Source: a virus. Taken from it: 63,818 nt of DNA. The stretch spans positions 1 to 63,818 of the IMG/VR virus record IMGVR_UViG_3300034069_001263; one strand, written 5' to 3'. A model generated the notes under the pieces. The model was not told where the DNA came from and made no database searches. It saw only the letters and a list, made by a program, of their open reading frames with translations. The stretch's first letter is position 1; each line of letters starts with the position of its first letter. Shown in pieces: positions 7,035 to 63,818 of this stretch. The translations under genes were made by a program, and so were the position numbers.

Positions 7035-7076
7035 CTATCAGATTTATCTGCGCTCGCAAGGGGGAGTTTCTGATAG
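7035..7076. promoter_or_regulatory. 8-bp inverted repeat CTATCAGA / TCTGATAG in the divergent region upstream of the repressor
   Basis: Arms at 7035-7042 and 7069-7076, between gene 6685-6987 (-) and the repressor (+); possible operator. Confidence 0.3.
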
Positions 7077-7141
7077 TGCAAGCGAACACAGATCGGTCTG
7101 TGTATGGACGGGTCGCAGCACGCTTCTATAGCCCCCTGGCC

Positions 7142-12875: not shown

Positions 12876-13039
12876 GATTCCGTCCCCCGCGGTTTTCCGG
12901 CCGCTTCCCAGGACGCGACCGCTTCCAGCCAGCGCTCACCTTTGTTGACCTCATCGCGGATGCGGTTGGTCTCATCCTCGATCTGCTCGTCGGTCATGCC
13001 GTCGAAATCGGCAGCAAAGTCCTTCCATGCCTCGTCCAT
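12872..13039 (-). CDS. Small acidic hypothetical protein (55 aa, below the ORF-track cutoff)
   Basis: Hand translation MDEAWKDFAADFDGMTDEQIEDETNRIRDEVNKGERWLEAVASWEAAGKPRGTES; coupled at both ends. Confidence 0.35.
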   Translation of the reverse strand: MDEAWKDFAADFDGMTDEQIEDETNRIRDEVNKGERWLEAVASWEAAGKPRGTES

Positions 13040-13731
13040 CACAAGATACTCCGCACCACATGCAGCCCTTCATCGAGCGACGTGCAGCGGAACCCCACAG
13101 CCTCGTTCACCATGCAGTGCTCATGGGGGTTGCCCGTCGCTTCTATGCAGGCGACGATCGGCGTGCGCTTCAGGTCAGCCCAGGCGATTTCCATCACCGT
13201 CCCGATCGAAACCTTGGCGGCGCCGAGCAGGTTGACCAGCAGCACGTCACACCGCGTCGCGTCGAAGCGGTCGCGGGTCATGATGCCGCGGGGCGAGGAC
13301 AGCGGCGACAGGTGGCCGTATTCTTCGCAGGTGGCGGAGAAGCCCTGGGTGTCGATGGCTTCGACTTTGGAACGATGCCAGTGAGCGGTGCCGCCCAGTT
13401 CGTCGCTGAACTCGACGTAGTAGGAAACGTTCGCTTCGCCGAAACCGACGACCTTGCCTTCGCCTCCGTCCGGGCCAGCCACCTGTACCCGCGTCCCAAC
13501 CGGATACGGGTGCTCCATCTTCTTCTCCGCGCCGCGCAGATACTCCTTCGCGCGCATCGGCGAGAGGCCGCGGATACCCGCTTCGGCGAGCGACGCGATG
13601 GCTTGGTCGCGCCAGTCCGTGGCACCTTTATAGCTGAGTCCGGCGATCGGGCCGGCGAGGTAAACGGTGGGGGCGGTACCCGGAACAACGTTGATCTTCG
13701 TGCCGGGTGGGAAGAACGCTGCATCAGCCAT
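13039..13731 (-). CDS. Nucleoside 2-deoxyribosyltransferase-like protein with inserted beta domain
   Basis: 230 aa from ATG 13731; VYLAGPIAGLSYKGATDWRD and C-terminal DVLLVNLLGAAKVSIGTVMEIAWA motifs; the Arg-rich upstream part of ORF 13039-14031 was trimmed. Confidence 0.55.
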   Translation of the reverse strand: MADAAFFPPGTKINVVPGTAPTVYLAGPIAGLSYKGATDWRDQAIASLAEAGIRGLSPMRAKEYLRGAEKKMEHPYPVGTRVQVAGPDGGEGKVVGFGEANVSYYVEFSDELGGTAHWHRSKVEAIDTQGFSATCEEYGHLSPLSSPRGIMTRDRFDATRCDVLLVNLLGAAKVSIGTVMEIAWADLKRTPIVACIEATGNPHEHCMVNEAVGFRCTSLDEGLHVVRSIL

Positions 13732-13934
13732 CACATCATCCTTTCGAAGAAGCCGCCCCACCAGAGCACCGACGCCTCGCCCACGGCGGAAAGCGCCACG
13801 AGTGCCGCGCCGATGCGCTGCTGCTTGGGGGTGAGCACGATCCACCGTCGCGCCGGCCGCGCCGCGCCGAGCAGGCCGCTGGCGATCACGAGGAACAGCC
13901 AGGCGATGACGGTGAGTTGGGGGAGGCGGGTCAT
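13731..13934 (-). CDS. Small membrane protein
   Basis: 67 aa from ATG 13934; TM LTVIAWLFLVIASGLLGAA. Confidence 0.4.
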   Translation of the reverse strand: MTRLPQLTVIAWLFLVIASGLLGAARPARRWIVLTPKQQRIGAALVALSAVGEASVLWWGGFFERMM

Positions 13935-14230
13935 GCCGCCACCGTCTGTGGGCGATAGGTGAAGGCGTCTCGTGGCACTTGGGAGTACACCAGCACCCAA
14001 CCCTGCAACCGGATGCACAGCATCCCGTCACGGCGCATCCGGCGCTCCGCCACCATGCCGCGGCGTTCCAGGTAGCGCAGATGCACGGTGCGCCAGGGGC
14101 GTGGCGGCTCGGGCTTGAGGCAGTCGTAGATCGGCGGCTCGATCCAGCCCGTGGCGGATGCCGACGCGATGGCGGCCAGCTCGCCTTCGGTGATCTCGTC
14201 GGGAAGCGGTTCCCAGCGGAGGCGGCTCAT
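13931..14230 (-). CDS. Hypothetical protein
   Basis: 99 aa; ATGA overlaps at both ends. Confidence 0.45.
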   Translation of the reverse strand: MSRLRWEPLPDEITEGELAAIASASATGWIEPPIYDCLKPEPPRPWRTVHLRYLERRGMVAERRMRRDGMLCIRLQGWVLVYSQVPRDAFTYRPQTVAA

Positions 14231-15523: not shown

Positions 15524-16168
15524 TCAGGCTCCCACGTCGGTGAAGTTGATATTCGGAAAGGCCGCGTCCACGTCGAACCAGCCATTGACAGACTTCTTCT
15601 CCTCGACGGGATCGACCTCCCAGCCGTAGAGTTGAACATGCTCCACTGCGCGATCCAGCTTCGCCATGACGGCGATGTTGAGGTCGGTCTGTCGATCAGC
15701 TTCGGCGATCCGTTGCGCCAGCGTGGCGTCGATCAGATTGTGGCCTTCACCCGTAAAGCCGAGCCTCCGTCGCATCTCCTTCATATCGCTCTTCGCGTTG
15801 GCGACCTGCTGGTTGGCGACCTCGCCTTTTGAGCGATCCTGCTGAAGCAGATTCACCATCTTCTTGATGATATCAATGCGCTTGAACGATGCCGACTGCG
15901 CGATGGCGCGGTCAAAGGCGCCGAGCACCAGATGCGCGACCTCTTCGAGTTCGGTGGGCGGGCGGACACTGCCGTCGTCGCCTGTCTCATCGTAGCGCTG
16001 GCGACGCTCCGGGTCGGACAGGATCACGTAGGCACGCTGCACCTGCTCGAAAGCGTCACGCTCTCCGCCCTTATCGGGATGGTGCTGCTGAACGCCGCGG
16101 CGGTGCGCCTGCTTGATTGCTTCGGGCGAGGCGTCACGCTCGACACCGAGGGCCTGGTAGGGGTCCAC
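15524..16168 (-). CDS. J-domain (DnaJ-like) protein
   Basis: DPYQALGVERDASPEAIKQAHRRGVQQHHPDKGG with the HPD tripeptide; the C-terminal 140 aa is unassigned. Confidence 0.85.
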   Translation of the reverse strand: MDPYQALGVERDASPEAIKQAHRRGVQQHHPDKGGERDAFEQVQRAYVILSDPERRQRYDETGDDGSVRPPTELEEVAHLVLGAFDRAIAQSASFKRIDIIKKMVNLLQQDRSKGEVANQQVANAKSDMKEMRRRLGFTGEGHNLIDATLAQRIAEADRQTDLNIAVMAKLDRAVEHVQLYGWEVDPVEEKKSVNGWFDVDAAFPNINFTDVGA

Positions 16169-24159: not shown

Positions 24160-24315
24160 TTAGCGGCGCGGCATCAGTATCAAGATCCACAGCACGGCCG
24201 TGGCCACCGCCACCCATCGGCCCCACCGTTTCACCATCTCCCGGCCGGCGGTGCGCGTGGCAGCCGTGGAGGTGACGGCGAATAGGAGAACCATCGCTAT
24301 GGCTAGGCCGATCAT
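24160..24315 (-). CDS. Small two-TM membrane protein
   Basis: 51 aa from ATG 24315 (MIGLAIAMVLLFAV...VAVATAVLWILILM). Confidence 0.4.
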   Translation of the reverse strand: MIGLAIAMVLLFAVTSTAATRTAGREMVKRWGRWVAVATAVLWILILMPRR

Positions 24316-24461
24316 GTCGGATCTACCATTTGTGCGCCGCATAGGGCGCGCGCCATGAGAACTTGGGCGGTGGTGAAAGCGGGAGTCGGTTCGCCCGGCT
24401 CTTGCAGCAACTCCGGTTCATCTAGCCAAGTGACGATGTCGATTGCGTCAGAAAGGGTCAT
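24312..24461 (-). CDS. Small acidic hypothetical protein (49 aa, below the ORF-track cutoff)
   Basis: Hand translation MTLSDAIDIVTWLDEPELLQEPGEPTPAFTTAQVLMARALCGAQMVDPT; coupled at both ends. Confidence 0.3.
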   Translation of the reverse strand: MTLSDAIDIVTWLDEPELLQEPGEPTPAFTTAQVLMARALCGAQMVDPT

Positions 24462-25369: not shown

Positions 25370-25927
25370 TTAAATAGCGGTGAGGATTTTATAGCCAAGC
25401 GCCTCCAAGTACTTTAGACCGCTGTCACGAAAACAGGAGCCGTAGCCTTCTTCACCGTCGTAATTCGGATTGGGATGCTTCTCAGGATTGAAGCCGAAGG
25501 TGATGAACTGCGGAACGTAGTTCGCCAGGGAGTAACCACGCGGCGTCTTGAAATCGCGTGGGTAAAGCTTGCGACCCTTGGGCGGCTTGGGCGCGCCGAC
25601 GCGGCTGCAATGATCCGTCATCCTGTGCCCGTCGATATACAGGCCCACCAGGGCGGCCGTTTCCTTGTCGTAACCGTATCCGCCGGCCGATGCGGATTGG
25701 AAGTGCATCGCTTGGCCGTAAGCATCGGTTTGCACTTTCGCCTTATCCTTTTGCGCCGCTTTGAGGGAGCGCGCGACTGCATCGCCCTGCTGGAAAATGT
25801 TCACCAACACATTGCCCGACGCGCCTTGATGTACCTGAACGGTCGCAACAACTTTACCATTCTTCATGATGATCTTGGCGGAGACAGCGCGTCCAGCGGC
25901 GGTTTCGTTTACATACTTGCTCATCAT
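25370..25927 (-). CDS. Hypothetical protein
   Basis: 185 aa from ATG 25927 (MMSKYVNE...); the upstream part of ORF 25370-26146 is repeat-derived and was trimmed. Confidence 0.5.
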   Translation of the reverse strand: MMSKYVNETAAGRAVSAKIIMKNGKVVATVQVHQGASGNVLVNIFQQGDAVARSLKAAQKDKAKVQTDAYGQAMHFQSASAGGYGYDKETAALVGLYIDGHRMTDHCSRVGAPKPPKGRKLYPRDFKTPRGYSLANYVPQFITFGFNPEKHPNPNYDGEEGYGSCFRDSGLKYLEALGYKILTAI

Positions 25928-25998
25928 CCGATTCCCTCTTTGAAAGTCACACTCCGCATAACGCACACTCATTCGCATGTGTCCACATAATGTTGACA
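25928..25998 (-). promoter_or_regulatory. Control region copy A: palindrome plus two GAGTGTG iterons plus SD
   Basis: The minus strand reads TGTCAACATTATGTGGACACATGCGAATGAGTGTGCGTTATGCGGAGTGTGACTTTCAAAGAGGGAATCGG-ATG; near-identical to 27777-27852. Confidence 0.7.
25982..25996. repeat. Palindrome copy TCCACATAATGTTGA
   Basis: Part of control region copy A. Confidence 0.8.
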
Positions 25999-26000
25999 CT

Positions 26001-26171
26001 CTACGCATTATTTTCCGGTTCTGAGGTCTCCCAAGGGCGAGGCCGAAGCGTGCCCCACGCCAGCGCGCGAACGGTGGCGGGTAGCGGCCGGATCTCGCCC
26101 AAGCGAAACCCTTCGGCGCGGCGAATGCGGTCGCGCTGCAGTTCAAGGTCGGCGGTTTGTTGAGCGGTCAT
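26001..26171 (-). CDS. Small hypothetical protein (56 aa, below the ORF-track cutoff)
   Basis: Hand translation MTAQQTADLELQRDRIRRAEGFRLGEIRPLPATVRALAWGTLRPRPWETSEPENNA; ATGA overlap with the upstream gene. Confidence 0.3.
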   Translation of the reverse strand: MTAQQTADLELQRDRIRRAEGFRLGEIRPLPATVRALAWGTLRPRPWETSEPENNA

Positions 26172-26371
26172 CCTAGTAGCTCCTCAAACTGAATGGGGTC
26201 CATCACGGGCGTTCCGCGGCGGCGGCGCTGGCCCATGGCTTGGCACACCACGCACGCGCCCGATCGGGTGAAGCGTTCGCCCGTGTGGCCCTGTGTGCAC
26301 GGGGCGCCCTGGTAGCGTGGGGCTCCGACCTTTCGCGCTTCCAGGCGGGTGGGGATCGCTACGCGGGACAT
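26168..26371 (-). CDS. Small zinc-ribbon-like protein with acidic-LLG tail
   Basis: 67 aa from ATG 26371; YQGAPCTQGHTGERFTRSGACVVC; ends IQFEELLG. Confidence 0.45.
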   Translation of the reverse strand: MSRVAIPTRLEARKVGAPRYQGAPCTQGHTGERFTRSGACVVCQAMGQRRRRGTPVMDPIQFEELLG

Positions 26372-26547
26372 CACCGAGTCAGCGCCGATAGCGCCAAGTG
26401 AAGGTGTGACGCGGCGCGTTCGAACCGTTGCGCGTCGGCTTCGGTTGTCGGGTGGCCTGGCGATACCTGAAGCGCCTTGGCGACCGCGGCAAGGTAGACC
26501 GTTGCTTCGTTGGTCGCGACGGCGCGGCGTTGTGAGGGGGTGGCCAT
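26371..26547 (-). CDS. Small hypothetical protein (58 aa, below the ORF-track cutoff)
   Basis: Hand translation MATPSQRRAVATNEATVYLAAVAKALQVSPGHPTTEADAQRFERAASHLHLALSALTR; TGATG overlap downstream. Confidence 0.3.
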   Translation of the reverse strand: MATPSQRRAVATNEATVYLAAVAKALQVSPGHPTTEADAQRFERAASHLHLALSALTR

Positions 26548-26550
26548 GGC

Positions 26551-27147
26551 TCAGCACGCCTCCCGCTGAAGCTGGCGGAGGCGCTGCATTTCCGCCTCAA
26601 ACGCTTTGCGATGCGCGGGAGTCATGCGCTGGTAGACCTGCAGGCGATAGACAGGGTCACCCGGCCCCATGCTGCGACCGTAGATACCCTCCAGTTCCGC
26701 CAGCAAATCCGCGTATTCGTCGGGGCGCGCCGCCTTGGTGCGGCTATACCAGTTCCATGCCGCGCCGCCGTGCTGGCCCACGTGGGCGTAAACGGTCAGA
26801 TGACGGCCCGTCTGATCGTGGGGCAGAGTCGGGAACACGGCGGTGACCTCGCCCTCCGACTTGCGGAAGATAACGGGAAGCGTCTCGACCTCCACCAATG
26901 ACGTATAACGCTGGCAGTCGGACGCCATGGTTGCGGGCTGGCGGGGCAGGGCGCGCAAAGCGTCATGGTTCCACATGAAGCCCGCATCCTCGCACGTGGA
27001 AGGCGCCACGCCCTGCAGGCATTCGACAACGAAAGCATCCGCGGCGGCGCGCTCGTCGTCCTCCAAGGCGGAACCATCGCCGTTGATGAGGTAGGTGGCC
27101 CATGCGCTCGGGGCAGTGGCGGTGATCGGGGTGAGGTTCATCGTCAT
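26551..27147 (-). CDS. Hypothetical protein
   Basis: 198 aa; first gene after a palindrome copy (GGAG-TT-ATG). Confidence 0.5.
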   Translation of the reverse strand: MTMNLTPITATAPSAWATYLINGDGSALEDDERAAADAFVVECLQGVAPSTCEDAGFMWNHDALRALPRQPATMASDCQRYTSLVEVETLPVIFRKSEGEVTAVFPTLPHDQTGRHLTVYAHVGQHGGAAWNWYSRTKAARPDEYADLLAELEGIYGRSMGPGDPVYRLQVYQRMTPAHRKAFEAEMQRLRQLQREAC

Positions 27148-27150
27148 AAC

Positions 27151-27165
27151 TCCACAATGTGTTGA
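27151..27165. repeat. Palindrome copy (minus orientation TCAACACATTGTGGA)
   Basis: The right half supplies GGAG 2 nt before ATG 27147; preceded by CAGTC. Confidence 0.8.
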
Positions 27166-27178
27166 GACTGAGAGCGCG

Positions 27179-27517
27179 TCAACGCTGGTAGAAAGCCACC
27201 ATCCGCTCCCCCACGGTGTCCGATCGCTCGCCCGGCTGCAGGACGTGATAGGCGAGCGTGGCGCCCGTGGTGGCGTCGAATAGCTCGACGGCGGGAACGA
27301 CCTGGCCAGCGGCGTTCGTCACCGTGGCGGGGCTGTAGTCGAGGGTTCGGGCGCGGTTGGTGACGCAATTAGAAACTGCCCATTCGGCGGCAAACGCGAG
27401 AATATCGTCGCGCATTCCAGGGTGCACGTTGGCGATCTCGCGTACGCGTGCACCACTAGCTCCGGCTTCAAGTTCCTCATGTAAATCAAATAGAATGCTG
27501 TCTCGTTCATTCGACAT
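27179..27517 (-). CDS. Hypothetical protein
   Basis: 112 aa from ATG 27517; GGAGG upstream. Confidence 0.45.
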   Translation of the reverse strand: MSNERDSILFDLHEELEAGASGARVREIANVHPGMRDDILAFAAEWAVSNCVTNRARTLDYSPATVTNAAGQVVPAVELFDATTGATLAYHVLQPGERSDTVGERMVAFYQR

Positions 27518-27609
27518 TACCAGCCTCCACCCGTGAAGATGCTGACAATCGGAGCCATGCAGCCCACGGTGATGAGGGCGCAAAGCGCGTAAATAAAGCG
27601 CTCGTTCAC
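27517..27609 (-). CDS. Possible 30-aa membrane micropeptide
   Basis: Hand translation VNERFIYALCALITVGCMAPIVSIFTGGGW; GTGA and TAATG overlaps with neighbours; very short, so weakly supported. Confidence 0.2.
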   Translation of the reverse strand: MNERFIYALCALITVGCMAPIVSIFTGGGW

Positions 27610-27776
27610 AGCGTGAACCCTTCCCAATCGAAGGCCGACTGAGTGGCAATAGCGGAGCTACGCTCGACCATAAGACGGAACGCGTTCTGCCAGTCGGCTT
27701 TGCAGGACTTGCTCGGCTCATCGTTGATTTCGATCAGGGTTAGATCGCTGTCCGATGTCTGTTGAACCGTAGCCAT
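27606..27776 (-). CDS. Small acidic hypothetical protein
   Basis: 56 aa from ATG 27776 (MATVQQTSDSDLTLIEINDEPSK...). Confidence 0.4.
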   Translation of the reverse strand: MATVQQTSDSDLTLIEINDEPSKSCKADWQNAFRLMVERSSAIATQSAFDWEGFTL

Positions 27777-27852
27777 CGTCCCGAGTCCCTCTCTGAAAGT
27801 CACACTCCGCATAACGCACACTCAACGCGGTGTGTCCACACAATGTTGACAG
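27777..27852 (-). promoter_or_regulatory. Control region copy B: palindrome plus two GAGTGTG iterons plus SD
   Basis: The minus strand reads CTGTCAACATTGTGTGGACACACCGCGTTGAGTGTGCGTTATGCGGAGTGTGACTTTCAGAGAGGGACTCGGGACG-ATG. Confidence 0.7.
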
Positions 27853-28078
27853 AGAGGGCGAGAAATAACGCACACTCACGGCGGGGCGACGGCGCCGAAA
27901 GTCACACTCAACGCTCGGCGCTCGGCGCTCGGCGCGAGACAACATCGAAAGTCACACTCAGCGGACGGGGTGGGCTGCGAGGAGCAAGCTTCGGTGCGAC
28001 GGCGCTGCAGCGCTGAAAGTCACACTCATAACGCACACTCATGCGGGCAAAGTCACACTCATAACTCACACTCATTGT
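27795..28078. repeat. Iteron family A field: GAAAGTCACACTC and ATAACGCACACTCA direct repeats
   Basis: GAAAGTCACACTC at 27795, 27897, 27947, 28015, 28048 (CAAAG variant), with outliers at 25942 and 28566; (A)TAACGCACACTCA at 27811, 27865, 28028, 28061; inverted GAGTGTGCG at 28184; GCTCGGC x3 tandem at 27914-27934. Confidence 0.85.
27835..27849. repeat. Palindrome copy TCCACACAATGTTGA
   Basis: Part of control region copy B. Confidence 0.8.
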
Positions 28079-28228
28079 ACTGGTGTGTTGTGACAGTGCT
28101 ACAGCTAAGTCATTGGCAACGGGCCCCAATCCGGCTCTGGACACGTCGGGGGCGGCGCTGAGCCGTCCTCCTCGCAACATTCTGAGTGTGCGCTAAGGCC
28201 AAATGAGATCTGTCAGGAGCGATTTGCT

Positions 28229-28560
28229 CTATGTGACAGGGTGACAGGCTCATATGGACCCAGTCACACCCCAGTCACAGCATATTTGCCGGTTTTCCGG
28301 GCAGGATGGCATCTATGTGACAGGGTGACAGCAATTTCTTAGAAGTTTGTCGTCTGAAGGGGGATATTCGATTAGCCGTACGGCAATGTTGTGGAAGTGC
28401 TGCTAGGCCAAATGAAAATACCGCCTGTGGGGAAACTTATAGGAAGGCCGAAAAAGCTGTCACCCTGTCACATTGAGTAGTAAGCTACTGTAATTATTCA
28501 TGAAAAGCTGTGACAGGGGGTGTGACAGGGGGTGTGACAGGGTCGGACCCTGTCACATAG
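28229..28560. repeat. Iteron family B field: TGTGACAGGG direct and inverted repeats
   Basis: Identical 19-mers CTATGTGACAGGGTGACAG at 28229 and 28313; inverted copy at 28457-28473; TGTGACAGGGGG x2 plus TGTGACAGGG at 28509-28542; 12+12 palindrome at 28533-28557; CAGTCACA x2 at 28261-28279. Confidence 0.85.
28332..28508. other. AT-enriched spacer inside iteron field (candidate DNA-unwinding element of a replication origin)
   Basis: Runs such as aatttcttagaagtttg, aaatgaaaatacc and taagctactgtaattattcatgaaaag in an otherwise GC-rich genome; flanked by family B repeats in opposite orientation. Confidence 0.45.
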
Positions 28561-28589
28561 AGCACGAAAGTCACACTCACCTGCAGTTA

Positions 28590-29318
28590 TCAGAGTCCGC
28601 CCTGACTTAGCGCAACCATGCGATCCATCCCGAATGCGATCTCGAAAACGAGACACGGCTTGAAGCCTGGCACCTCCGGGAAGTCGGTCCGGCGCGACGT
28701 GGAAGCGACCTCGCGCCAATCGCCGTTGTCCAGCCTACACTCGATGTCGGTCGTCTCCGTGGCGTAGGGCGGCAGGCGGTCCGAAGGGATGAGCCGCGTC
28801 TCCAAGCCGGTCAGGCGCTGAACGACCGGCACGAGAGCCTCGCGGATCGGTATCGCGATCTCAGCCTTGGTATCGGCCGCGTGGATGAGCTGCAGTTCGA
28901 GCTGGGTGAAGGCGTTGAGCCGCAGCTTCGCCGCGGTGGCGCCGTCCGTCGTCTCGCGCCGGTGGGAGTAGCCCATCTGCCAGACGCAAAGCGGAGGCTT
29001 CAGCTTGGTGGTGCGCATGATCTGGACTGCCGTCGCGTAGGTGCCGTCCGTCGTCTCTGCTCGCAGCGCGTAAGGATTGGTGCCGCCGGGCGGATCGGTC
29101 AGCATGAACACGTCCGAACGGTCGTAGGCTGCCGACATGCGCGCGAGCGGCATCATCGGTGGTGTCTCGACCTCCTCAAACGCCCACATCTGGTTGATGT
29201 CAGCCAGGGAGACCTGCACCGTGTCGAGGATAGTGTCGCGGATGCGGCGGCGGAGATGGAGCTCGCGCTGGCGCCAGAAGCGCAGGCCGGCAAGGTCGTC
29301 GTAGAGGGCGTAAGACAT
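28590..29318 (-). CDS. Class II aminoacyl-tRNA synthetase-like catalytic-core paralogue (HisRS/HisZ-like), no anticodon-binding domain
   Basis: 242 aa. Motif 1-like FEEVETPPMMPL. Substrate loop ALRAETTDGT. Motif 2-like WQMGYSHRRETTDGATAAKLRLNAFTQLELQ. Motif 3-like FEIAFGMDRMVAL. Assignment by eye only. Confidence 0.6.
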   Translation of the reverse strand: MSYALYDDLAGLRFWRQRELHLRRRIRDTILDTVQVSLADINQMWAFEEVETPPMMPLARMSAAYDRSDVFMLTDPPGGTNPYALRAETTDGTYATAVQIMRTTKLKPPLCVWQMGYSHRRETTDGATAAKLRLNAFTQLELQLIHAADTKAEIAIPIREALVPVVQRLTGLETRLIPSDRLPPYATETTDIECRLDNGDWREVASTSRRTDFPEVPGFKPCLVFEIAFGMDRMVALSQGGL

Positions 29319-29342: not shown

Positions 29343-31874
29343 TCAACCCGCCAAGCCCTGGCGTTGCAGATACCCTTCGTCGCCAAACAGGGAATAGAAT
29401 CGCTGCTGCCCGTGCCGCGGGAAGCGCTTCCGACCGCTGCCTATGGTGCAGAGGTGCCAATCCGGAACGAGCGCCATTGCCCGCCCAAGGCTTTGCGAAG
29501 CCACCTGGTTGTACGTTTTCACGTCGTTGCCGAGGCAGTCGGTCCATACCTCGATGAGGCAGGTCTCAGTACGCAGCCTCGGCTTGCCGTCCTCAGTCAG
29601 ATCGTCGTCGATGCTGCCGGTGTTGATCGGCTGAGACAGCCACTCGGCAATACGGCCAGCGGTGGCATCGTCGGCGCTCTCGACCCTCCGGGACTCTTGG
29701 AGCCGTGCGGCTGTGACTAGGGCTTCGCGCTCGGATAGGTAGAGCGGCAGGATGCCGGAGGGCTGTGTCGCGCGCATCGCCCGGTACAGCACAAGGGCTT
29801 CGGCCCATAGCTGGTTGAGGTTCAGTTCGAGCCGCGGAATGTCGATCTCGCCGTCGAGTTGGCACGGCATCGGCCACCAGCGGCGCGCGCCCGTGTCATC
29901 CTTGAGGTAGCGCTTGTCATTGGTCGAACCCAAGAAGATGCACTGCCGCGGGAACACGCCCGCCCGCCGCGCATAGGCCAGCCGGGCCTTGTCATGGGTA
30001 CGCGACATGAATGCCTTGATCGTCTGAACCTCGCCGCGCTGGAAGCCGGAAAGTTCAGGTATTTCCATGATCCAGGCACCTTGCATCGCCTCGATCATTT
30101 GCTTTTGATCGTGAAAGTCGCCGTCGAGTTCGGCAAACCAGCCGTGACCGAGCGTCTTGATGAAGGTGGACTTGCGCTTACCTTGCAGACCTTCAAGAAT
30201 GACGGCGAAGTCGAACTTGTGGCCGGGCTCGTAGATCCTGGTAACTGCCGCGATCAGCATGAGGCGCGACACGGATCGGCTATAGCTGTCGTTCGGGGCG
30301 CCGACGTAGTCGTGGAACAACGTCTCGACCCTGGCAGTGCCGTCCCATGTGTGGCTTTCGAGGTATTCGCGCACGGGATGGAAGGAGTGGTCGGTCGCGG
30401 CGAGTACGATCGAGGCCTTGAGATCCCGGTCGGTGACTTTCACACCGTAGCCACCCTGCGTCTTGGGTGCCTCCATGATCGAACGAACAGCATAGTCGCG
30501 ATCCTCCGACCATAGGTCTCCGTTCAGTTCGTCCTTCACCTGCCACACGCGGCCGGCGAGCTGGCGCGTTTGCTTTGCGGGATTGCTGCGAAGGTTCGGC
30601 TTGCTGCCAGGCTGCGTGCGCTGGACAGGTTCGAGCGTGAACTCGTTAAGCTGGGGCAGGCCTGCGAGACGTAGGTCGTTGCGGACCATCAACTCGACGT
30701 TATGCAGCGTCGGCTTGATTGCCCCTTCATCATTCCGGTCAAGCAGGCTCAGCCAGCCCCCCTTGGCGGAGATGGTGTCGTCATCGTCGTCGTCCGCGCC
30801 GCCGAGGAGATCGATGTCGGACTTTGGGGGCGGGACTTCGGCGGGGGCGTCGGCGCCGAGCAGGTCGTCGAAATCAGCCGGGGCCTCGTCATCAGCATCT
30901 TCGAACGCATCAACGAACGCCGCCGTTCGCGCGTCCTGGGCCCACTCTACCACCGTTGCCATGGTAACAGGCTTGCCGCGGTAGCGACCAAACGACTTCC
31001 ACTTCACGCGCCGCATCTCGCGCACCTGCTTGTCGCCGGTGAACTTGGTCGAGCGCTTGGTGTGTTTCAGCCAGAGATCGAAGCCTTCGTCGCTGCCCCC
31101 GAATTGGTGGTGCAGCGCCTGGCCGATACGCAGCCAGTCGTTGTAGTGCAGCTCGCTGATGTTGATCGCGCTCAGCGTTCGTTCGAGTTGGTCCCCCTTG
31201 AAGGTCAGAGGTTCGCGCGTTTCGAATTCGTACGTGGCGTGTTCAACCAATGACAGGCGTTCAATCGCCGAAGAGGATACAAACGGCCCAACGCCCAACT
31301 CCAACAGCGTGAAGTCGAGCTCGCGAAGCCAGCGATAAGGCTTACCGCTTTCGGGGTGGATGCTAGGCGGAACGACGACCTGCTTACTGGTGCCGTAGAG
31401 TTCCACTTCCCAATCGTACGACCATCCCTCTTTCCCGTCCTTGACGCGCTTATGCTTGCCGGGGCTGGTTGCCAGCAGCTTGGACCGGAAGGGTTTGTCG
31501 AGAATGAGGTAAAGATGCCGAGACTCGCCACCTGAGCCCGATTGGACGCACGGCAGTTCGGAGATGTTCACGTCTGGGAACAAGGCGCGGACCGCGTCCC
31601 ATGCCTCGTCTTTAAGGTCGTCAATCCTAATGTCGATGTCGAGGACATGGAGAAAGCCACCCGCGACTTGCGAGGGCTCACCTAGTCGAACGCCAACATT
31701 ATAGTTCGACTGATGTGATAAGCTAAGCTGCTCATGCGAAAGCACCGCGCTTTCGGACCAACCTGCTATGACAGGTCGCTTGTCCCGTGCTTTGAGCCAA
31801 TGAAGCGCGAAACCGGCAGCACGCAACGGCTCGACGGCGGCAAGCATGGCAGTGTCGAAGTCGTTGCGGCTCAT
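29343..31874 (-). CDS. Bifunctional primase-polymerase (Prim-Pol) / PriCT-2 / VirE-type P-loop helicase
   Basis: N-terminal GFALHWLKARDKRPVIAGW; PriCT-2-like YNDWLRIGQALHHQFGGSDEGFDLW; Walker A LEGLQGKRKST; acidic linker with two DxxLLG peptides. Confidence 0.85.
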   Translation of the reverse strand: MSRNDFDTAMLAAVEPLRAAGFALHWLKARDKRPVIAGWSESAVLSHEQLSLSHQSNYNVGVRLGEPSQVAGGFLHVLDIDIRIDDLKDEAWDAVRALFPDVNISELPCVQSGSGGESRHLYLILDKPFRSKLLATSPGKHKRVKDGKEGWSYDWEVELYGTSKQVVVPPSIHPESGKPYRWLRELDFTLLELGVGPFVSSSAIERLSLVEHATYEFETREPLTFKGDQLERTLSAINISELHYNDWLRIGQALHHQFGGSDEGFDLWLKHTKRSTKFTGDKQVREMRRVKWKSFGRYRGKPVTMATVVEWAQDARTAAFVDAFEDADDEAPADFDDLLGADAPAEVPPPKSDIDLLGGADDDDDDTISAKGGWLSLLDRNDEGAIKPTLHNVELMVRNDLRLAGLPQLNEFTLEPVQRTQPGSKPNLRSNPAKQTRQLAGRVWQVKDELNGDLWSEDRDYAVRSIMEAPKTQGGYGVKVTDRDLKASIVLAATDHSFHPVREYLESHTWDGTARVETLFHDYVGAPNDSYSRSVSRLMLIAAVTRIYEPGHKFDFAVILEGLQGKRKSTFIKTLGHGWFAELDGDFHDQKQMIEAMQGAWIMEIPELSGFQRGEVQTIKAFMSRTHDKARLAYARRAGVFPRQCIFLGSTNDKRYLKDDTGARRWWPMPCQLDGEIDIPRLELNLNQLWAEALVLYRAMRATQPSGILPLYLSEREALVTAARLQESRRVESADDATAGRIAEWLSQPINTGSIDDDLTEDGKPRLRTETCLIEVWTDCLGNDVKTYNQVASQSLGRAMALVPDWHLCTIGSGRKRFPRHGQQRFYSLFGDEGYLQRQGLAG

Positions 31875-31916: not shown

Positions 31917-32216
31917 TCAGGCAAGGAAAGGCACGAAGTCGGAGAACTCCACAGGCTGAGTGCCGTTTGCGTGCAGTACAGCGAGGTTGCGAGTGGTACG
32001 GGCAAGCTCGACGAGGCGCTTGGCGTTGCGGGTGTTCACCGAGCCGGCCCGCAGCCAGCGATAGATGATTTCGCGGCTGATCTTGAGTTCCTTGGCCACC
32101 GCAGCGACGCAAAGACGCGGCGAGTCAGTCGTGGAGTCGATCAAAAAGCCCGGCAGCGCCGCCACGAGAGCCTTGTAAAGCGGTCCTTGCGCCCACTCTG
32201 CCGCTTCGCTCGCCAT
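31917..32216 (-). CDS. Cro-like HTH regulator
   Basis: 99 aa; HTH VAAVAKELKISREIIYRWLRAG; first leftward gene at the divergent switch region. Confidence 0.6.
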   Translation of the reverse strand: MASEAAEWAQGPLYKALVAALPGFLIDSTTDSPRLCVAAVAKELKISREIIYRWLRAGSVNTRNAKRLVELARTTRNLAVLHANGTQPVEFSDFVPFLA

Positions 32217-33016: not shown

Positions 33017-33115
33017 TGAGCGCCGGGGTTTAAGCCTCGTCCACGTCCCGACATCGCCGGGCGGCCGGTGGTCGAAGTAGCCGCCCACACCCCAGAGAAG
33101 AAGGAACACGTCACC

Positions 33116-33285
33116 ATGTCCCATGCCATCGGCAGTAAGGTTCGTTTCAAGCCGGGTCCGCGCTCCACGTCCACCGTCGTCGGCACCGTGAAGGCGGTCG
33201 GCGTCGGCGCGCCGGGCAACACCTCGAGGTGCAGACGCATGATCGCACCTACAAGGTGTTGCCCGGCGCCGCGACGGCGGCCTGA
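33116..33285 (+). pseudogene. Small gene apparently split by a frameshift near 33215-33220
   Basis: Frame A reads MSHAIGSKVRFKPGPRSTSTVVGTVKAVGVGAPG, then turns Arg/Cys/Pro-rich. Frame B continues plausibly as QHLEVQTHDRTYKVLPGAATAA-stop (TGA 33283). Confidence 0.3.
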
Positions 33286-33303
33286 ACTCAATATTTCGGC
33301 CAA

Positions 33304-33337
33304 GCCCCCGCTGCCGATGGTGGCGGGGGCCGTTTCT
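33304..33337 (+). terminator. Rho-independent terminator
   Basis: Stem GCCCCCGC/GCGGGGGC (33304-33330) followed by CGTTTCT. Confidence 0.55.
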
Positions 33338-33377
33338 GGCGGCTCGTGTGAAGATCACGGGCCTCCCGAGATGAGAT

Positions 33378-33869
33378 GTGAGCACCATGACACCCGACGA
33401 TGACTTTTCTCGCCGCCTGATCGCGCTGCGTCGCTTCTTGCTCAACAACGCAAGGAATATGACCCGCGACTCTGATGCGGCAGAAGATCTCGCGAGCGAA
33501 ACGGTGCTTCGCGCATGGCGATATCGTCACCAGTTCGACCCCGCCACCAATCTGCAATCATGGTGCTGCATCATCATGCGCAACCAGTGGCTGACGACGC
33601 TGCGTCGCGCCAAGTTCAACGTTGGTTCGACCGAGGGTCTGCCCGAGCCGTCCTGCCCGGCGCCGCAGCACATCATTCTCGACGCGCTCGACGCGGAGCG
33701 AGCCATGGCGCGACTGCCGGCAGCGATGCGCGAGACGGTGACGCTGATCGCGGTCGGAGCGACCATCGAGCAGGCTGCCAAGGTAACAGGCGTTGCCGAG
33801 GGAACAGTGAAGAGCCGCACTGGACGCGGTCGCAAGATGCTCGCGGAGATGTGCCATGTGCCAGGATGA
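33378..33869 (+). CDS. ECF-type sigma-70 family sigma factor
   Basis: Region 2 DAAEDLASETVLRAWRYRHQFDPATNLQSWCCIIMRNQW; region 4 LPAAMRETVTLIAVGATIEQAAKVTGVAEGTVKSRTGRGRKML; start at GTG 33378 or ATG 33387. Confidence 0.8.
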   Translation: MSTMTPDDDFSRRLIALRRFLLNNARNMTRDSDAAEDLASETVLRAWRYRHQFDPATNLQSWCCIIMRNQWLTTLRRAKFNVGSTEGLPEPSCPAPQHIILDALDAERAMARLPAAMRETVTLIAVGATIEQAAKVTGVAEGTVKSRTGRGRKMLAEMCHVPG

Positions 33870-35677: not shown

Positions 35678-35914
35678 ATGGCTGACAACGACACCGTGAA
35701 CAGCACGTCCGACGATCGGACGGTGAACAACGTCATGCGGCACGCCTATCGCGTGCTGGGCGATGCCGAGAAGGCCACCATGCAGAAGATCAAGGACGAC
35801 GGCCTCTCGCTGCACGACTTCCTGTCGTCGCTCGGCAACAGCCGCGAACTCTCCGTCGCCAAGACGAAGATCGAAGAGGCCGTCATGTGGGCGGTCAAGC
35901 ACATCACCGCCTGA
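35678..35914 (+). CDS. Conserved phage hypothetical protein
   Basis: 78 aa; C-terminal KTKIEEAVMWAVKHIT helix; shares the initiation context GGAGAGCACCAACATGGCTGA with the next gene. Confidence 0.5.
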   Translation: MADNDTVNSTSDDRTVNNVMRHAYRVLGDAEKATMQKIKDDGLSLHDFLSSLGNSRELSVAKTKIEEAVMWAVKHITA

Positions 35915-45247: not shown

Positions 45248-45421
45248 GTGCGTGACAGCGAGGTCAAGGCGGGATGCTCGGGCAAGACGCCCTATCTCGC
45301 TTGGAACCATGCCAAGCGCGCCATTTCACGGCCGCGGTTCAGAGACCGAGAAGGGCGGGGCTTGGTAAACATCTACCGCTGCCGGTTCTGCTCGGCATGG
45401 CACATCGGTCGTAGCGCGTGA
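45248..45421 (+). CDS. Small zinc-ribbon-like protein (57 aa, below the ORF-track cutoff; paralogue of 23434-23652)
   Basis: GGAGGAATAG-GTG; hand translation VRDSEVKAGCSGKTPYLAWNHAKRAISRPRFRDREGRGLVNIYRCRFCSAWHIGRSA; GTGA overlap with terS. Confidence 0.4.
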   Translation: MRDSEVKAGCSGKTPYLAWNHAKRAISRPRFRDREGRGLVNIYRCRFCSAWHIGRSA

Positions 45422-46173
45422 GCGAGTTCGACGAATTGCTGGGCAGTGATGCGCCCGCCGCCACTGACGTGCCCGAGCGCCGTCGCATGGGTCGTCCCAC
45501 CAATGAGGAACGCGCGCGCCGCGCCGAGCAGCTTCAGAGAGATGCGCAGTTCCAGCGCGAAGTCCGCATGGCAGGACAGGGGAAGGGTGCGTTCCAACCC
45601 GAGGAGTATTTCGGACTCTGCACGCAGAACCAGATCGGGCGGCTGCTCGGCATGGACCCGATGACGGTGAAACAGCGTCTCCAGGCGGGCGGCGCGAAAC
45701 CGGCCGGCACGGTGGGCTCAGGGCGCCCCGTGTGGATGTTCCGCGACGTGATTCCGTATCTCGTCAAGCCGAAGATGGACATCGACACCTACATCAAGAC
45801 GCTCAACCCGACCGATCTGCCAAACTCAATAAACAAGACCTACTGGGAAGCGCAGCGTATCAAGAACAAGGCGCTGATCGAGACGGGCGAGGCATGGGAC
45901 GATGCTTCGGTGTTGGAAGTGTTCGGCGCGGTGTTCATGCTCTTCAAGGATCGCCTGCCTCTGGTGACGGAGGGGATGCGTGAAGAGGGCTTGACTGAGA
46001 AGCAGTCCGACAAGCTGGCGGGTTTCATCGACCAGTTGCAGCGGGATTTGCACGCCCGGTTGGTTGAGATGCCGCAGCAGCGACGCCTCACGCTGTCGCG
46101 ACAGCAGTCGGTGATGCCCGACGACGGCCCGACCGTGGCTGAGTTTTATGGGGACGAGGTGGAGGCGGACTGA
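45418..46173 (+). CDS. Terminase small subunit candidate
   Basis: 251 aa immediately upstream of the GpA-type large subunit (TGATG junction); HTH-like QNQIGRLLGMDPMTVKQRL; N-terminus MSEFDELLGSD. Confidence 0.6.
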   Translation: MSEFDELLGSDAPAATDVPERRRMGRPTNEERARRAEQLQRDAQFQREVRMAGQGKGAFQPEEYFGLCTQNQIGRLLGMDPMTVKQRLQAGGAKPAGTVGSGRPVWMFRDVIPYLVKPKMDIDTYIKTLNPTDLPNSINKTYWEAQRIKNKALIETGEAWDDASVLEVFGAVFMLFKDRLPLVTEGMREEGLTEKQSDKLAGFIDQLQRDLHARLVEMPQQRRLTLSRQQSVMPDDGPTVAEFYGDEVEAD

Positions 46174-48278
46174 TGGCCTTCCTCTCGCTCGAACACATGG
46201 TGCTGGCCTCCGCGCAGGCTGTGCGCCCACCGGAACGCCTCAGCGTTTCCGAGGCCGCTGAGCGCTACCACATCGTCAAGAACCCCGGCAGCCACTCGGG
46301 CCCGTTCGACTTCGACAAGACGCCCTATCTGCGTGAACCGAACGACCTCCTTACCAGCCTCGACTTCCGCGCCGTCGTGCTAGTCGCGCCAGCGCGGACC
46401 GGCAAATCCGCCACGTTCATCAACTGGCTGTGCCACACCGCCATCTGTGACCCGAGCGACATGATGCTCGTTCACATGGCGCAGCACACGGCGCGCACCT
46501 GGAGCCAGGGCGACCTGTCCAAAGCCATCCGCCACAGCGATGAGCTTAAGAAGCGGATCGCGCCAGGCAAGGCCAACGACAACGTTTACGACAAGACGTT
46601 CCTTTCCGGGATGCGCCTGGAAGTAACGTGGCCGACGATCAAGAACCTGTCCGGCAAGACCTACCGCTACGTCGGCATCATGGACAACGATCGCGTCAAG
46701 CCGCAGATCGTCGAGCAAGAGGCGTTTCTCTTCGACGCCGCGAGGAAGCGCACCGGCACCTACAAGCGTTACGGCATGACCTATGCCGAGACGAGCCCCG
46801 GCTTTCCGATTACTGATCCGAAGTGGTCGCAGCCGGCCGCCGAGCCGCATCAGGCACCGCCCTGCGATGGTCTGCTGTCAGTCTACAATCGTGGCGATCG
46901 ACGCCGCTGGTATTGGCAGTGTCCTTGGTGCGGCGACTGGTTCCAGCCTCGCTTCAACCTAATGCGGTGGCCGAACAGCACCGACTTCATGGAGTCGGCC
47001 GAGCAGGCGTATATCGCCTGTCCGCACTGCTTTGAGGTGAACAAAGACCCGATCATCCATTCAATGATGGGCGAGTTGAACAACGCGGGGAAGTGGCTGA
47101 TCGAGGGTCAGCGGTTTGACGGCGACCAGATCGTCGGTCGGCCGCGTCGCTCGCAGATTGCATCCTTCTGGATGTTCGGGCCGGCGGCGGGACTGGCGAC
47201 CGACTGGAAGGAGTTGGTGCTCAACTACCTTCAGGCGACGGAGGAGTTCAAGAACACCGGCAATGACGGCAACCTCATGACCACGATCACCGTGGATCAG
47301 GGCGAAGCGTACCTGCCTCCGGCGCTGGAAGGCGGCCTACTGCCCGAGCTGCTGAAGAGTCGGGCGGAGGAATGGGGCGGACGCGACGAGCATGGCACGC
47401 CCTATGTGCCCGATGGCGTTCGCTTCCTGATGGCCATGATCGACGTGCAGGCCGGCACGCGACCGAACTTCGTGGTTCACATCTTCGGCGTTGGTGTGGG
47501 CTTCGATATCTGGCACATCGACATGTTCAAGATTGAGCGCTCCGACCGCATCAATCTTGAAACCGGAGAGCGCCACCTGATCGACCCGGCAGCGTACCCC
47601 GAGGATTGGGACGTGCTGATCGGGCAGGTGATGGAGCGGACTTGGCCGCTGAACGACGGCTCCGGCCGACGCATGGCGCTGAAGATGACGGCTTGCGACA
47701 GCGGTGGTCGCGACGGCGTGACCCGCAACGCCTATGAGTTCTACCATCGGCTGCGTGAGGCCGGAAAGGAGAAGCGCTTCCACCTCCTGGCGGGTCGGCC
47801 GAGCCAGACCGATCTTTCCACGTTGCGGTTGTCGCACATCGAGAACTGGACGGGTACCAAGCGGCTGGCTGGCGCGGTCGGCGCGATTCCGCTGTGGCTG
47901 GTTAACTCGAACATCGTGAAGGATGCGGCCGACAGCAAGCTGCGGCGCACCGAGCCGGGCGGCATGATCCACTTCCCGAACTGGGCGCCGGATTGGCTCT
48001 ACTCCCAGCTTACCAACGAGGTGCGGTTGCCGAAGGGGTGGGACAACCCCAACAAGAAGCGGAACGAAGCCTGGGACCTTCTGTCCTACTGCATCGCGTT
48101 CTGCGACCACACAGACATCCGGATGCGGTTCATCAACTGGGAGGCGCCGCCGGGCTGGGCCGCACCGTGGGATCGGAACGACATGGTGGTGGCTTCTAGT
48201 GAGGCGGCGTTGCCGTTTCAAGAGAAGACGGCTAGGCCGAAGAAGTCACTGGCGGATCTGGCGCGGGATATGGCGTAA
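46173..48278 (+). CDS. Terminase large subunit (lambda GpA family)
   Basis: 701 aa; FDFDKTPYLREPNDLLT and Walker A VAPARTGKS; zinc-like CPWCGDW...CPHC. Confidence 0.9.
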   Translation: MAFLSLEHMVLASAQAVRPPERLSVSEAAERYHIVKNPGSHSGPFDFDKTPYLREPNDLLTSLDFRAVVLVAPARTGKSATFINWLCHTAICDPSDMMLVHMAQHTARTWSQGDLSKAIRHSDELKKRIAPGKANDNVYDKTFLSGMRLEVTWPTIKNLSGKTYRYVGIMDNDRVKPQIVEQEAFLFDAARKRTGTYKRYGMTYAETSPGFPITDPKWSQPAAEPHQAPPCDGLLSVYNRGDRRRWYWQCPWCGDWFQPRFNLMRWPNSTDFMESAEQAYIACPHCFEVNKDPIIHSMMGELNNAGKWLIEGQRFDGDQIVGRPRRSQIASFWMFGPAAGLATDWKELVLNYLQATEEFKNTGNDGNLMTTITVDQGEAYLPPALEGGLLPELLKSRAEEWGGRDEHGTPYVPDGVRFLMAMIDVQAGTRPNFVVHIFGVGVGFDIWHIDMFKIERSDRINLETGERHLIDPAAYPEDWDVLIGQVMERTWPLNDGSGRRMALKMTACDSGGRDGVTRNAYEFYHRLREAGKEKRFHLLAGRPSQTDLSTLRLSHIENWTGTKRLAGAVGAIPLWLVNSNIVKDAADSKLRRTEPGGMIHFPNWAPDWLYSQLTNEVRLPKGWDNPNKKRNEAWDLLSYCIAFCDHTDIRMRFINWEAPPGWAAPWDRNDMVVASSEAALPFQEKTARPKKSLADLARDMA

Positions 48279-63725: not shown

Positions 63726-63818
63726 GTCTCAACATAATGTGGTAATTCCAGGTCATGCCGTTTCTTCTCCTACTGGCTGTTGTCGTTGCCCTGTTCGTAA
63801 TTAGCGTCGCGCTGATGC
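63678..63818. repeat. Terminal overlap copy 2 (identical to 1-141); includes palindrome copy 63729-63743 and the first 64 nt of the gene equivalent to 78-305
   Basis: Base-by-base identity with 1-141. Confidence 0.95.

Follow-up and report, generated by a model that had tools for sequence, protein, structure and literature searches.

A non-coding field in a chi-like sphingomonad phage as a probable composite of SaPI-type replication origin, predicted cohesive-end site and lineage-specific repeat array

What does a phage keep in a repeat-filled stretch of DNA free of genes, directly downstream of its primase operon? This question is raised by a non-coding field (27777-28589) in the 63,818-nt virus record IMGVR_UViG_3300034069_001263, the whole of which was analyzed and is called the window below. 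The field runs from the stop codon of a gene resembling aminoacyl-tRNA synthetases (aaRS) to the start of a minus-strand gene at 27776. A sequence-only reading had described two repeat families, A and B, around an AT-rich core, and had proposed a theta-type replication origin or else a partition site, a cos/terminase-binding region or a non-coding RNA locus. We compared the field with related loci (designated by L numbers) encoding primases 45-76% identical to that of the window. The outcome is that the field is probably a composite hub, in which a replication origin of the Staphylococcus aureus pathogenicity island (SaPI) type, formed by Family B, a cosN of the type found in phage chi and an array of Family A boxes for a lineage-specific DNA-binding protein lie next to each other.

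The repeats claimed for 27795-28578 were all found where they had been placed. These include identical Family B 20-mers at 28228 and 28312 with an inverted copy at 28457-28472, three tandem Family B copies at 28509-28543 and a perfect 12+12 palindrome at 28533-28557. The AT-enriched core was also borne out, since 28332-28508 is 43.5% GC against 62.8% for the genome, and the genome minimum for sliding windows of 100, 150, 200 and 300 bp falls inside 28201-28510, as does the least stable 100-bp duplex of the genome. An independent gene call, made on a different assembly of this phage, placed no gene inside the field, in agreement with its being non-coding, while the statement that it is the largest such stretch is plausible only, the gene caller used being too crude for strict proof. 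The field has no Rfam match, either at the gathering threshold or at E ≤ 1, a tRNA scan of it was empty, and a scan for sigma-70 promoters and terminators found none in it. No DnaA boxes were found, the near-matches to GTGTCCACA being parts of a genome-wide palindrome. The cumulative GC skew has its minimum near 17 kb, which coincides with the switch in gene orientation and is therefore uninformative on the origin.

Family B and its AT-rich DNA are best read, by analogy with SaPI, as a replication origin, whose candidate core is the iteron module at 28229-28557. Sites of the TGTGACAGG type are found on one strand at 28232, 28240, 28316, 28324, 28509, 28521 and 28533, and on the opposite strand at 28457-28472 and 28549-28557, with two degenerate copies (CCCAGTCACA) at 28259-28279 and an outlier at 28089-28097. 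All seven exact genome copies of TGTGACAGG lie within 28089-28557, as do 11 of the 24 one-mismatch matches (11.7 expected). The likeliest unwinding element is a 36-bp AT-rich segment of 30.6% GC (28473-28508), flanked by two iterons on one strand (28457-28472) and three on the other (28509-28543); as a single strand, 28440-28575 folds with a z of -5.2. The inverted iteron pairs are held apart by a 124-bp spacer of 45% GC (28333-28456), which contains a conserved motif, ACTTCTAAGAAA, reading AGTTTCTAGGGAAAA in relatives and found in L001, L002, L233, L234 and the phage RcPescado.

This layout is retained among the relatives, while the repeat sequences themselves are swapped wholesale between lineages. 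The closest relative, L002, is collinear with the field: its Family B sites come in the same order and orientations, with an identical spacer of 124 bp, and it shares the A boxes and a conserved block in between. Inverted iteron clusters follow the primase-helicase gene in about 35 related loci. Other relatives carry, at the same place, short repeats in both orientations but made of different words, such as TGGAACGAG, TGGAACAAGA, ACCTGTCCAC, ACTGTCCCA and GCAACGCT, and many have a second, direct-repeat family (for example, AAACCTTAGAC, GCCTAAGTGTTTC, CATGGGAAGC and CGCATGCG) that varies independently of the first. The iterons directly follow the primase gene in L002, L003, L014, L233, L234 and L235 and are 0.5-7 kb away where genes have been inserted; in the window they come after a 0.75-kb inserted gene. 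Distant primase homologues (L020 and L133, 32-33% identity) are also followed by iteron clusters.

The predicted initiator is an 843-residue protein (29343-31874, minus strand) in which Pfam recognizes PrimPol, PriCT-2 and a VapE/D5-type superfamily 3 (SF3) helicase, the VapE-like domain with E = 1.9e-71. Its residues 483-751 match the Rep1 protein of SaPI1 (PDB 7PDS_A, residues 100-362) with E = 1.1e-51. As for its C-terminal part (encoded at about 29346-29567, minus strand), an AlphaFold model of the last 150 residues (pLDDT 86.7) displays the helix-helix-wing topology of a winged helix. The only significant matches of this model in the PDB are the 7PDS chains (E = 5e-4, probability 1.00, TM score 0.56), followed by the winged helices of Fox, IRF, CodY and CAP proteins; a homologue search with the 114-residue C-terminal fragment alone gave no match. 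SaPI Rep proteins are SF3 helicases that load themselves and read iterons through a C-terminal winged-helix domain, and the SaPI origin consists of 6-12 iterons directly downstream of rep, with a central AT-rich region and at least two oppositely pointing iterons on each side; in SaPI5, a primase is fused to Rep (PMC9371898).

The window thus shares with SaPI origins (PDB 7PDS and 7OLA) a Rep1-homologous SF3 helicase with a C-terminal winged helix, fused to a primase as in SaPI5, as well as iterons downstream of its gene and an AT-rich center with opposed iterons on each side. The two differ, however, in that the iterons of the window are 9-11 bp long instead of 5-6 bp and their layout is richer, with three to four direct copies, the 36-bp AT-rich segment, a pair, the 124-bp spacer and three more pairs. 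Moreover, the primase domain of the window is PrimPol/PriCT-2, a 0.75-kb aaRS-like gene parts the helicase gene from the origin, and the element is a full temperate siphovirus of Alphaproteobacteria in which the candidate origin abuts the predicted cos. A second point of comparison is the alpha protein of P4 with its ori and crr sites. Alpha likewise unites primase, helicase and a C-terminal winged-helix origin-binding domain in one polypeptide, which reads short repeats in both orientations; it is unlike the protein of the window in its primase, which has a different (TOPRIM) fold, and in its sites, which are split between ori and the distant crr.

If the C-terminal domain reads the iterons, the two should change together, and in most loci they do. 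Among the relatives, only the last 75 residues of the primase-helicase show similarity structured by iteron class, and a single residue X on the predicted wing, in the motif G-X-QR, tracks this class. Glutamine (GQQR) is paired with CTGTCA(C/T) or CTGTCT in 10 of 11 nonredundant loci (the window, L002/L086, L110, L009, L010, L012, L233, L234, L235 and L125; L005 is the exception). Lysine (GKQR) is paired with GGAAC in nine of 10 (L001/L095, L003, L014, L093, L087, L092, L006, L232 and L115; exception, L121), and GRQR, GLQR and GNTR loci carry other iteron words. The pairing does not follow overall relatedness: the primase of L232 is 67% identical to that of the window yet belongs to the K/GGAAC class, while those of L010 and L012 are only 53-54% identical to it yet have the Q/TGTCAC combination. 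Nor does it follow the terminase small subunit (TerS), since L232 has the TerS closest to that of the window and a different B class. We infer from these comparisons that the C-terminal winged-helix domain reads the Family B iterons.

Several observations weigh against this origin or temper it. Part of the covariation could be explained by physical linkage, since the origin and the coding sequence of the C-terminal domain are 0-7 kb apart, although it persists where 2-7 kb of other genes separate the two. R-class domains are paired with many iterons, so that one residue is not the whole code. The 124-bp spacer, at 45% GC, is only modestly AT-rich, and its counterpart in L002 is less AT-rich by eye. 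On balance, helicase homology and covariation support the origin reading for Family B and the AT-rich core, but not for the field as a whole.

Between Families B and A lies a 13-mer that the sequence-only reading had overlooked, GCTCAGCGCCGCC on the minus strand (GGCGGCGCTGAGC on the plus strand), at 28151-28163. A 10-mer within it is invariant in at least 17 relatives, irrespective of A or B class, and occurs once in the window in exact form; the sphingomonad relatives all share GCTCAGCGCC, then a C-rich stretch, then (A)GGGACCCG, between B and A. The 13-mer is 1.2 kb from the primase stop codon and 17 kb from TerS, and the mapped ends of phage chi and of the Rhodobacter phages of the RcD cluster, the closest cultured phages by primase (43% identity), occupy the corresponding non-coding stretch that follows the primase gene. 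Primer extension mapped the chi cohesive ends as 5'-GGTGCGCAGAGC, at a distance of more than 10 kb from the terminase genes (PMC4342425). RcD phages have a 12-nt 5' overhang beside gene 1, which encodes the primase, and their terminase genes are displaced from cos as well (PMC8601537). The RcD end is GGGACGCCGACC, and gene 1 is 690 bp from the left end. When the motifs are aligned in the sense of the primase gene, GCTCTGCGCACC (chi), GGTCGGCGTCCC (RcPescado) and GCTCAGCGCCNNN (window family) have the core GCTC(T/A)GCGC in common, and the 13-mer of the window falls in register and in orientation with the chi and RcD ends. One relative, L116, carries GCTCTGCGC, the cohesive-end core of chi.

The ends of metagenomic contigs point to the same place. 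Contigs L233, L088 and L125 end exactly 13 nt from the start of the motif, L096 ends at CCTCAGCGCCACG and L106 one base further, while L006 ends directly before the expected motif start. On the strength of its conservation, its alignment with the mapped ends and these contig ends, the 13-mer is read as the predicted cosN of the window phage. It lies within conserved flanks (28100-28175, minus strand), a candidate terminase recognition site, which include GGGGCCCGTTGCCAA (28113-28127), the counterpart of AGGGACCCGT(T/A)GCCA in relatives. With a cut at this site, packaged DNA would carry the origin at its left extremity and Family A at its right extremity. The sequence-only reading had held that physical ends in this region would favor cos. 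The ends of relatives do map to the equivalent region, in support of that alternative, but at the 13-mer and at neither repeat family.

Some features of the window and of its relatives fit this prediction less well. The cos flanks of the window are the most divergent of the family, with GGGGCCC in place of GGGACCC and the upstream TTTGAA..GAAAA missing. The window itself is a circular assembly, so termini were seen in contigs of relatives only, and RcD records of the RcKeef type start 353 bp from the RcPescado end. The 12-mer GGGACGCCGACC is internal in the RcKeef record (OP009273; L147/L148), and in the RcPescado record (MW677521; L145/L146) it stands at each end, with one A added; within the cluster, the deposited ends are not consistent. 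A break at ~27795, at the last A-box pair, in a Logan contig of the same phage (SRR23972082_16698; L144) was considered as a physical end and discarded. It is explained by a 31-bp exact repeat shared with 25942-25972, 31 bp being, we presume, the k-mer size of the assembler.

The resemblance to chi goes well beyond the cohesive ends. Both genomes have, in the same order, cos, an iteron/AT-rich region, a minus-strand primase gene and a minus-strand regulator gene, then divergent genes for exonuclease, a gp2.5-like single-stranded DNA-binding protein (SSB), Pol I, helicase, TerS and the terminase large subunit (TerL), with the terminase more than 10 kb from cos and a direct-repeat array near the right end. 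In chi, the primase gene ends 0.9 kb from the mapped end, with GTTACAA iterons in between, seven of the eight copies in the first 50 kb lying at 226-476 around an AT-rich stretch, and four direct 19-mers, TGATATACGCGGCGTGCGT, are found near the right end. The cohesive-end cores can be compared directly as GCTCTGCGC in chi and GCTCAGCGC in the window. Chi differs from the window phage in being lytic, in having GTTACAA as its iteron, in restricting its right-end repeat, a 19-mer, to the end itself, in the spacing of cos and iterons (220 bp instead of 65 bp) and in a small helix-turn-helix gene (gp1) between iterons and primase. In the literature searched, no replication origin has been assigned to chi or chi-like phages. 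The RcD phages, like the window phage, are temperate (about 68 kb) and have the primase as gene 1 beside the left end, (C)TCTCAC iterons in both orientations between primase and end, and a repeat-rich right end. They differ in that the genes of their right arm converge on cos, whereas those of the window leave it, and in an overhang that is GGGACCGCCGACC-like, namely GGGACGCCGACC.

As for Family A, TGAGTGTGMSTTWY with up to two mismatches has 14 matches in the genome against 2.2 ± 1.5 expected, 13 of which fall within 25942-28579, and the 7-mer CACACTC also occurs 14 times, 13 of them within 25948-28572. The array proper (27795-28074, minus strand) consists of eleven 14-bp boxes in the same orientation, TGAGTGTG(A/C)(C/G)TT(T/A)(C/T), including three pairs that form composite units, a ...GTTAT box followed by a ...CTTTC box. 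It lies upstream of the gene starting at 27776, on the predicted right virion end. A single inverted box (28183-28196, plus strand), with counterparts in L002 and L235, stands on the origin side of the predicted cosN, 20 bp away, and another single box (28566-28579, minus strand) is placed between the B module and the stop codon of the aaRS-like gene. A unit of ~62 bp (27780-27851), made of a palindrome, a box pair and a ribosome-binding site, is duplicated before the gene at 25370-25927, where it forms a second promoter-like unit of palindrome and A-box pair (25942-25998, minus strand; duplicate of 27795-27851). The A box at 25958-25971 in this unit had escaped the sequence-only reading. Between two boxes of the array, at 27914-27934, there is a (GCTCGGC) x3 tandem for which no counterpart was noticed in relatives.

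Related boxes occupy the same position in L002, L232 and L235, those of L232 and L235, GATTGTGACTTAT and GATTGTGCGTTAC, being of the GATTGTG type. Additional boxes are found in intergenic DNA upstream of genes, at 25942-25971 in the window and at 10024, 12474 and 3946 in L235. In L002, the boxes bracket a TATAAT element, while L110 and L234 have origin and cos but no A array. Lineage specificity, intergenic copies upstream of genes and the gaps in L110 and L234 favor a regulator, and Family A is most likely a lineage-specific array for a putative regulator of transcription that would act on the operons beginning at 27776 and 25927. The same three features disqualify Family A as origin iterons, which is how the sequence-only reading had used it. 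Against regulation stand the failure of the promoter scan to reveal a sigma-70-like promoter in the field and the absence of a binder among the candidates tried. Furthermore, the right-end repeats of chi and RcD phages lie downstream of convergent genes and upstream of no gene, so that a purely transcriptional role does not generalize; by analogy with these arrays, Family A may serve in packaging or otherwise at the DNA end.

Three candidate binders were set aside. The 99-residue helix-turn-helix protein encoded upstream of the primase gene (31917-32216, minus strand) was considered for A and for B, but its recognition helix is almost invariant across all A/B classes. An extracytoplasmic function (ECF)-type sigma factor with Sigma70_r2 and r4_2 domains (33378-33869, plus strand) is missing in L002, which shares the boxes. 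A search for proteins limited to phages with GA(G/T)TGTG boxes returned as its only specific match a 60-residue two-pass membrane peptide (24160-24342), which was also rejected.

Could the repeats instead belong to the packaging machinery? In lambda, cos (cosQ-cosN-cosB) comprises a nicking site that yields 12-nt 5' overhangs and flanking protein-binding elements, among them cosB, whose repeats surround an AT-rich IHF site and point in both directions. Family B, only ~65 bp from the predicted cosN and matched in chi and RcPescado by clusters 220-280 bp from the mapped left end, could accordingly be a cosB, that is, lambda-like TerS R sites around a bend at the first-packaged end, with the origin elsewhere. 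The terminase speaks against it, and we consider this unlikely. Lambda cos adjoins the terminase genes and its flanking repeats are TerS sites, whereas the terminase genes of the window are 17 kb away and its variable repeats do not track TerS. The window and L232 form the closest TerS pair (66% identity by BLASTP, 69% in the alignment), with putative helix-turn-helix motifs that are almost identical (QNQIARLL...DPMTVKRRL in L232 and QNQIGRLL...DPMTVKQRL in the window), and yet differ in B class (TGTGACAGG and GGAACAC, respectively). More generally, the putative TerS recognition helix, DPMTVK(Q/K/R)RL, is nearly invariant in eight relatives across which B class (TGTGACAGG vs. GGAACAC) and A boxes (GAGTGTG vs. 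GATTGTG) differ, and no cosB-type covariation of the repeats with the TerS DNA-binding domain was found in these eight; this fits a TerS that reads the conserved cos flanks (e.g., GGGACCCGT(T/A)GCCA). The B class tracks the C-terminal motif of the primase, the adjacent protein is homologous to an initiator known to read such sites, and the distant homologues L020 and L133 also have clusters downstream of the primase. The corresponding proposal for Family A, a cosB/cosQ-type packaging signal at the right end bound by terminase or an accessory protein, deserves more attention, even if it is still the less probable account. It is suggested by the direct-repeat arrays that chi (4 x TGATATACGCGGCGTGCGT) and RcD have behind convergent genes within a few hundred base pairs of the right end, by the occurrence of A boxes to either side of cosN in the window, L002 and L235, and by the presence of GA(G/T)TGTG-type boxes in all four genomes with a window-like DUF1441 TerS whose right side is, at least partly, readable (L232, L233, L235 and the window). 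It does not, however, explain why the boxes differ under an almost invariant TerS recognition helix, why L110 and L234 have the cos 13-mer without A arrays, or why extra boxes lie upstream of genes, as far as 3.5 kb past cos toward the right end and, for L235, ~5 kb distant toward the origin as well. L002-type phages also share the boxes although no TerS homologue was found in their contigs, which counts little since that search was word-limited.

Two alternatives that concern the field as a whole fare far worse. Direct-repeat arrays upstream of an operon resemble centromeres of the parC/parS type, and the window was assembled as a circle, as would befit a plasmid-type partition site of an extrachromosomal prophage. 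But Pfam and PHROG scans of about 60 open reading frames (ORFs) revealed no ParA-, ParB-, ParM- or ParR-like protein, the phage has a tyrosine integrase and an S24 repressor, and its relatives L002, L003 and L004 are embedded in bacterial chromosomes or large scaffolds, which makes this alternative very improbable. A structured non-coding RNA, which the length of the non-coding stretch and its conserved blocks might suggest, is just as hard to credit: besides the lack of an Rfam match and of a terminator or promoter in the field, conservation is limited to short boxes and the 13-mer, with indels free in between, and the repeat words are replaced wholesale between lineages while the layout is kept.

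With the composite hub as the preferred explanation, the field might work as follows. The winged-helix domain of the PrimPol-SF3 helicase would read the 9-bp Family B iterons of 28229-28557. By analogy with SaPI Rep, the helicase would then load itself on either side of the AT-rich segment, melt it and prime synthesis. The chi-type terminase, encoded 17 kb away, would cut at 28151-28163, leaving 5' cohesive ends of roughly 12-13 nt, so that origin and Family A would be joined only after circularization of the virion DNA. A lineage-specific DNA-binding protein would occupy Family A, most likely regulating the 27776 and 25927 operons.

One of the elements in the field is not specific to it. A 19-bp palindrome, T(G/A/C)TC(A/C)ACAnAATGTTGA(C/T/A)A, has 13 sites in the genome against 0.5 expected (3152, 8067, 11475, 16773, 17145, 25980, 27833, 32271, 35203, 42480, 45203, 48518 and 52546), and a weaker copy lies near 50-66. 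It had not been picked up before as a genome-wide palindrome, TGTCAACAnAATGTTGACA, and its copy inside the A field, TGTCCACACAATGTTGACA, is at 27833-27851. All sites are intergenic save 35203, inside the exonuclease gene, and many are 3-30 bp before a start codon, on either strand. This palindrome might serve the S24 repressor as a stoperator-like operator or else form a hairpin in RNA or DNA. A TTCAAC-N5-GTTGAA copy occurs in L010, and the everted form, GTTGAA-N5-TTCAAC, in L002.

The genome around the field is, judging by its gene content, that of a complete temperate chi-like (Casjensviridae-type) siphovirus of sphingomonads. Its first 140 bases (1-140) are identical to the last 140 (63679-63818), which indicates a circular assembly of ~63.7 kb opened at an arbitrary point within a tail-region gene. 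The Pfam and PHROG scans identified tail genes, an endolysin, an S24 (CI/LexA-like) repressor (7076-7864) and a tyrosine integrase (8156-9301), and relatives are located in Sphingomonas and Sphingopyxis chromosomes. Besides minus-strand blocks of small genes there is a divergent replication module, with the helix-turn-helix protein, the primase-helicase and the aaRS-like gene on the minus strand and, on the plus strand, the sigma factor, a Cas4-like exonuclease, a gp2.5/Enc34-type SSB, a methyltransferase, Pol I and a helicase; TerS (45418), TerL, portal, protease, capsid and tail genes follow on the plus strand. A distance of 17 kb separates the predicted cos from the DUF1441 TerS and the TerL (45418-48278, plus strand). 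TerL falls in the chi-like clade, being 42-48% identical over its full length to those of AchV4, Loktanella pCB2051-A, DSS3-P1 and RcD, with 93 Salmonella (chi-type) records among its matches; a TerL scan of viral contigs recovered only one of the primase-bearing contigs (L151, the same as L007). At the DNA level, a megablast of 19 kb against known phages gave no match, and the aaRS-like gene was the sole one to find any.

That gene (28590-29318, minus strand), which sits between primase gene and candidate origin, encodes 242 residues that weakly match a class II aaRS core (tRNA-synt_2b, E = 1.8e-5, short of the family cutoff). Its only DNA relatives are in jumbo Caulobacter and Brevundimonas phages, where they are annotated as "aminoacyl-tRNA synthetase." It is missing in all relatives examined and hence has no part in the mechanism. 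L232 has an HNH endonuclease gene in the same slot (8509-8994), between primase and origin/cos region, so that this junction seems to be an insertion hot spot. Among the relatives, only L012 has an ECF-type sigma factor (43% identity), the position being taken by small ORFs of ~61 residues in L232, L233 and L234; just before the sigma factor gene of the window, between it and a gene for a 218-residue protein, there is a ~370-bp stretch (33017-33377) without a called gene in the other assembly. The 78-residue product of 35678-35914 (plus strand) is marked Acb2_Tad1_hairpin (PF24729) in the precomputed Pfam annotation of that assembly and is, on this basis, a candidate sponge against CBASS or Thoeris signaling. 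The minus-strand early genes include one for a DnaJ-domain protein (15524-16168; E = 2.6e-18), and the product of 13039-14031 (minus strand) resembles nucleoside 2-deoxyribosyltransferase, an annotation shared by chi gp41.

Origin, cos and regulator sites are ordinary kinds of element, which had not been dissected before in this phage family, and together they make no new kind of system. A bolder idea, to which we give little credence, is that origin, cosN and Family A constitute one circularization-dependent switch conserved across chi-like phages. If so, the full nucleoprotein hub would form only once the cohesive ends anneal, and the readers of Family A would be an unrecognized, lineage-specific family coupling early transcription, loading of the SF3 helicase and access of the terminase to cosN 65 bp away, for instance by keeping cos uncut while the origin fires. 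Such a switch would be a bacterial counterpart of the transcription-factor arrays beside the SF3-helicase origins of papillomaviruses and polyomaviruses.

The composite hub has more immediate consequences. Chi-like phages (Casjensviridae) are widespread but little studied, and the distance of their cos from the terminase genes has been noted and left unexplained. Our analysis provides a testable map, with a probable SaPI/Rep-type iteron origin beside cosN and a candidate specificity residue in the winged helix (GQQR, GKQR, GRQR), and it offers a base-exact prediction of where the virion DNA of an uncultured sphingomonad phage ends. The 13-mer would serve as a marker to orient and trim metagenomic genomes of the chi-like family, and Family A is singled out as a third component, whose putative binding protein is worth seeking.

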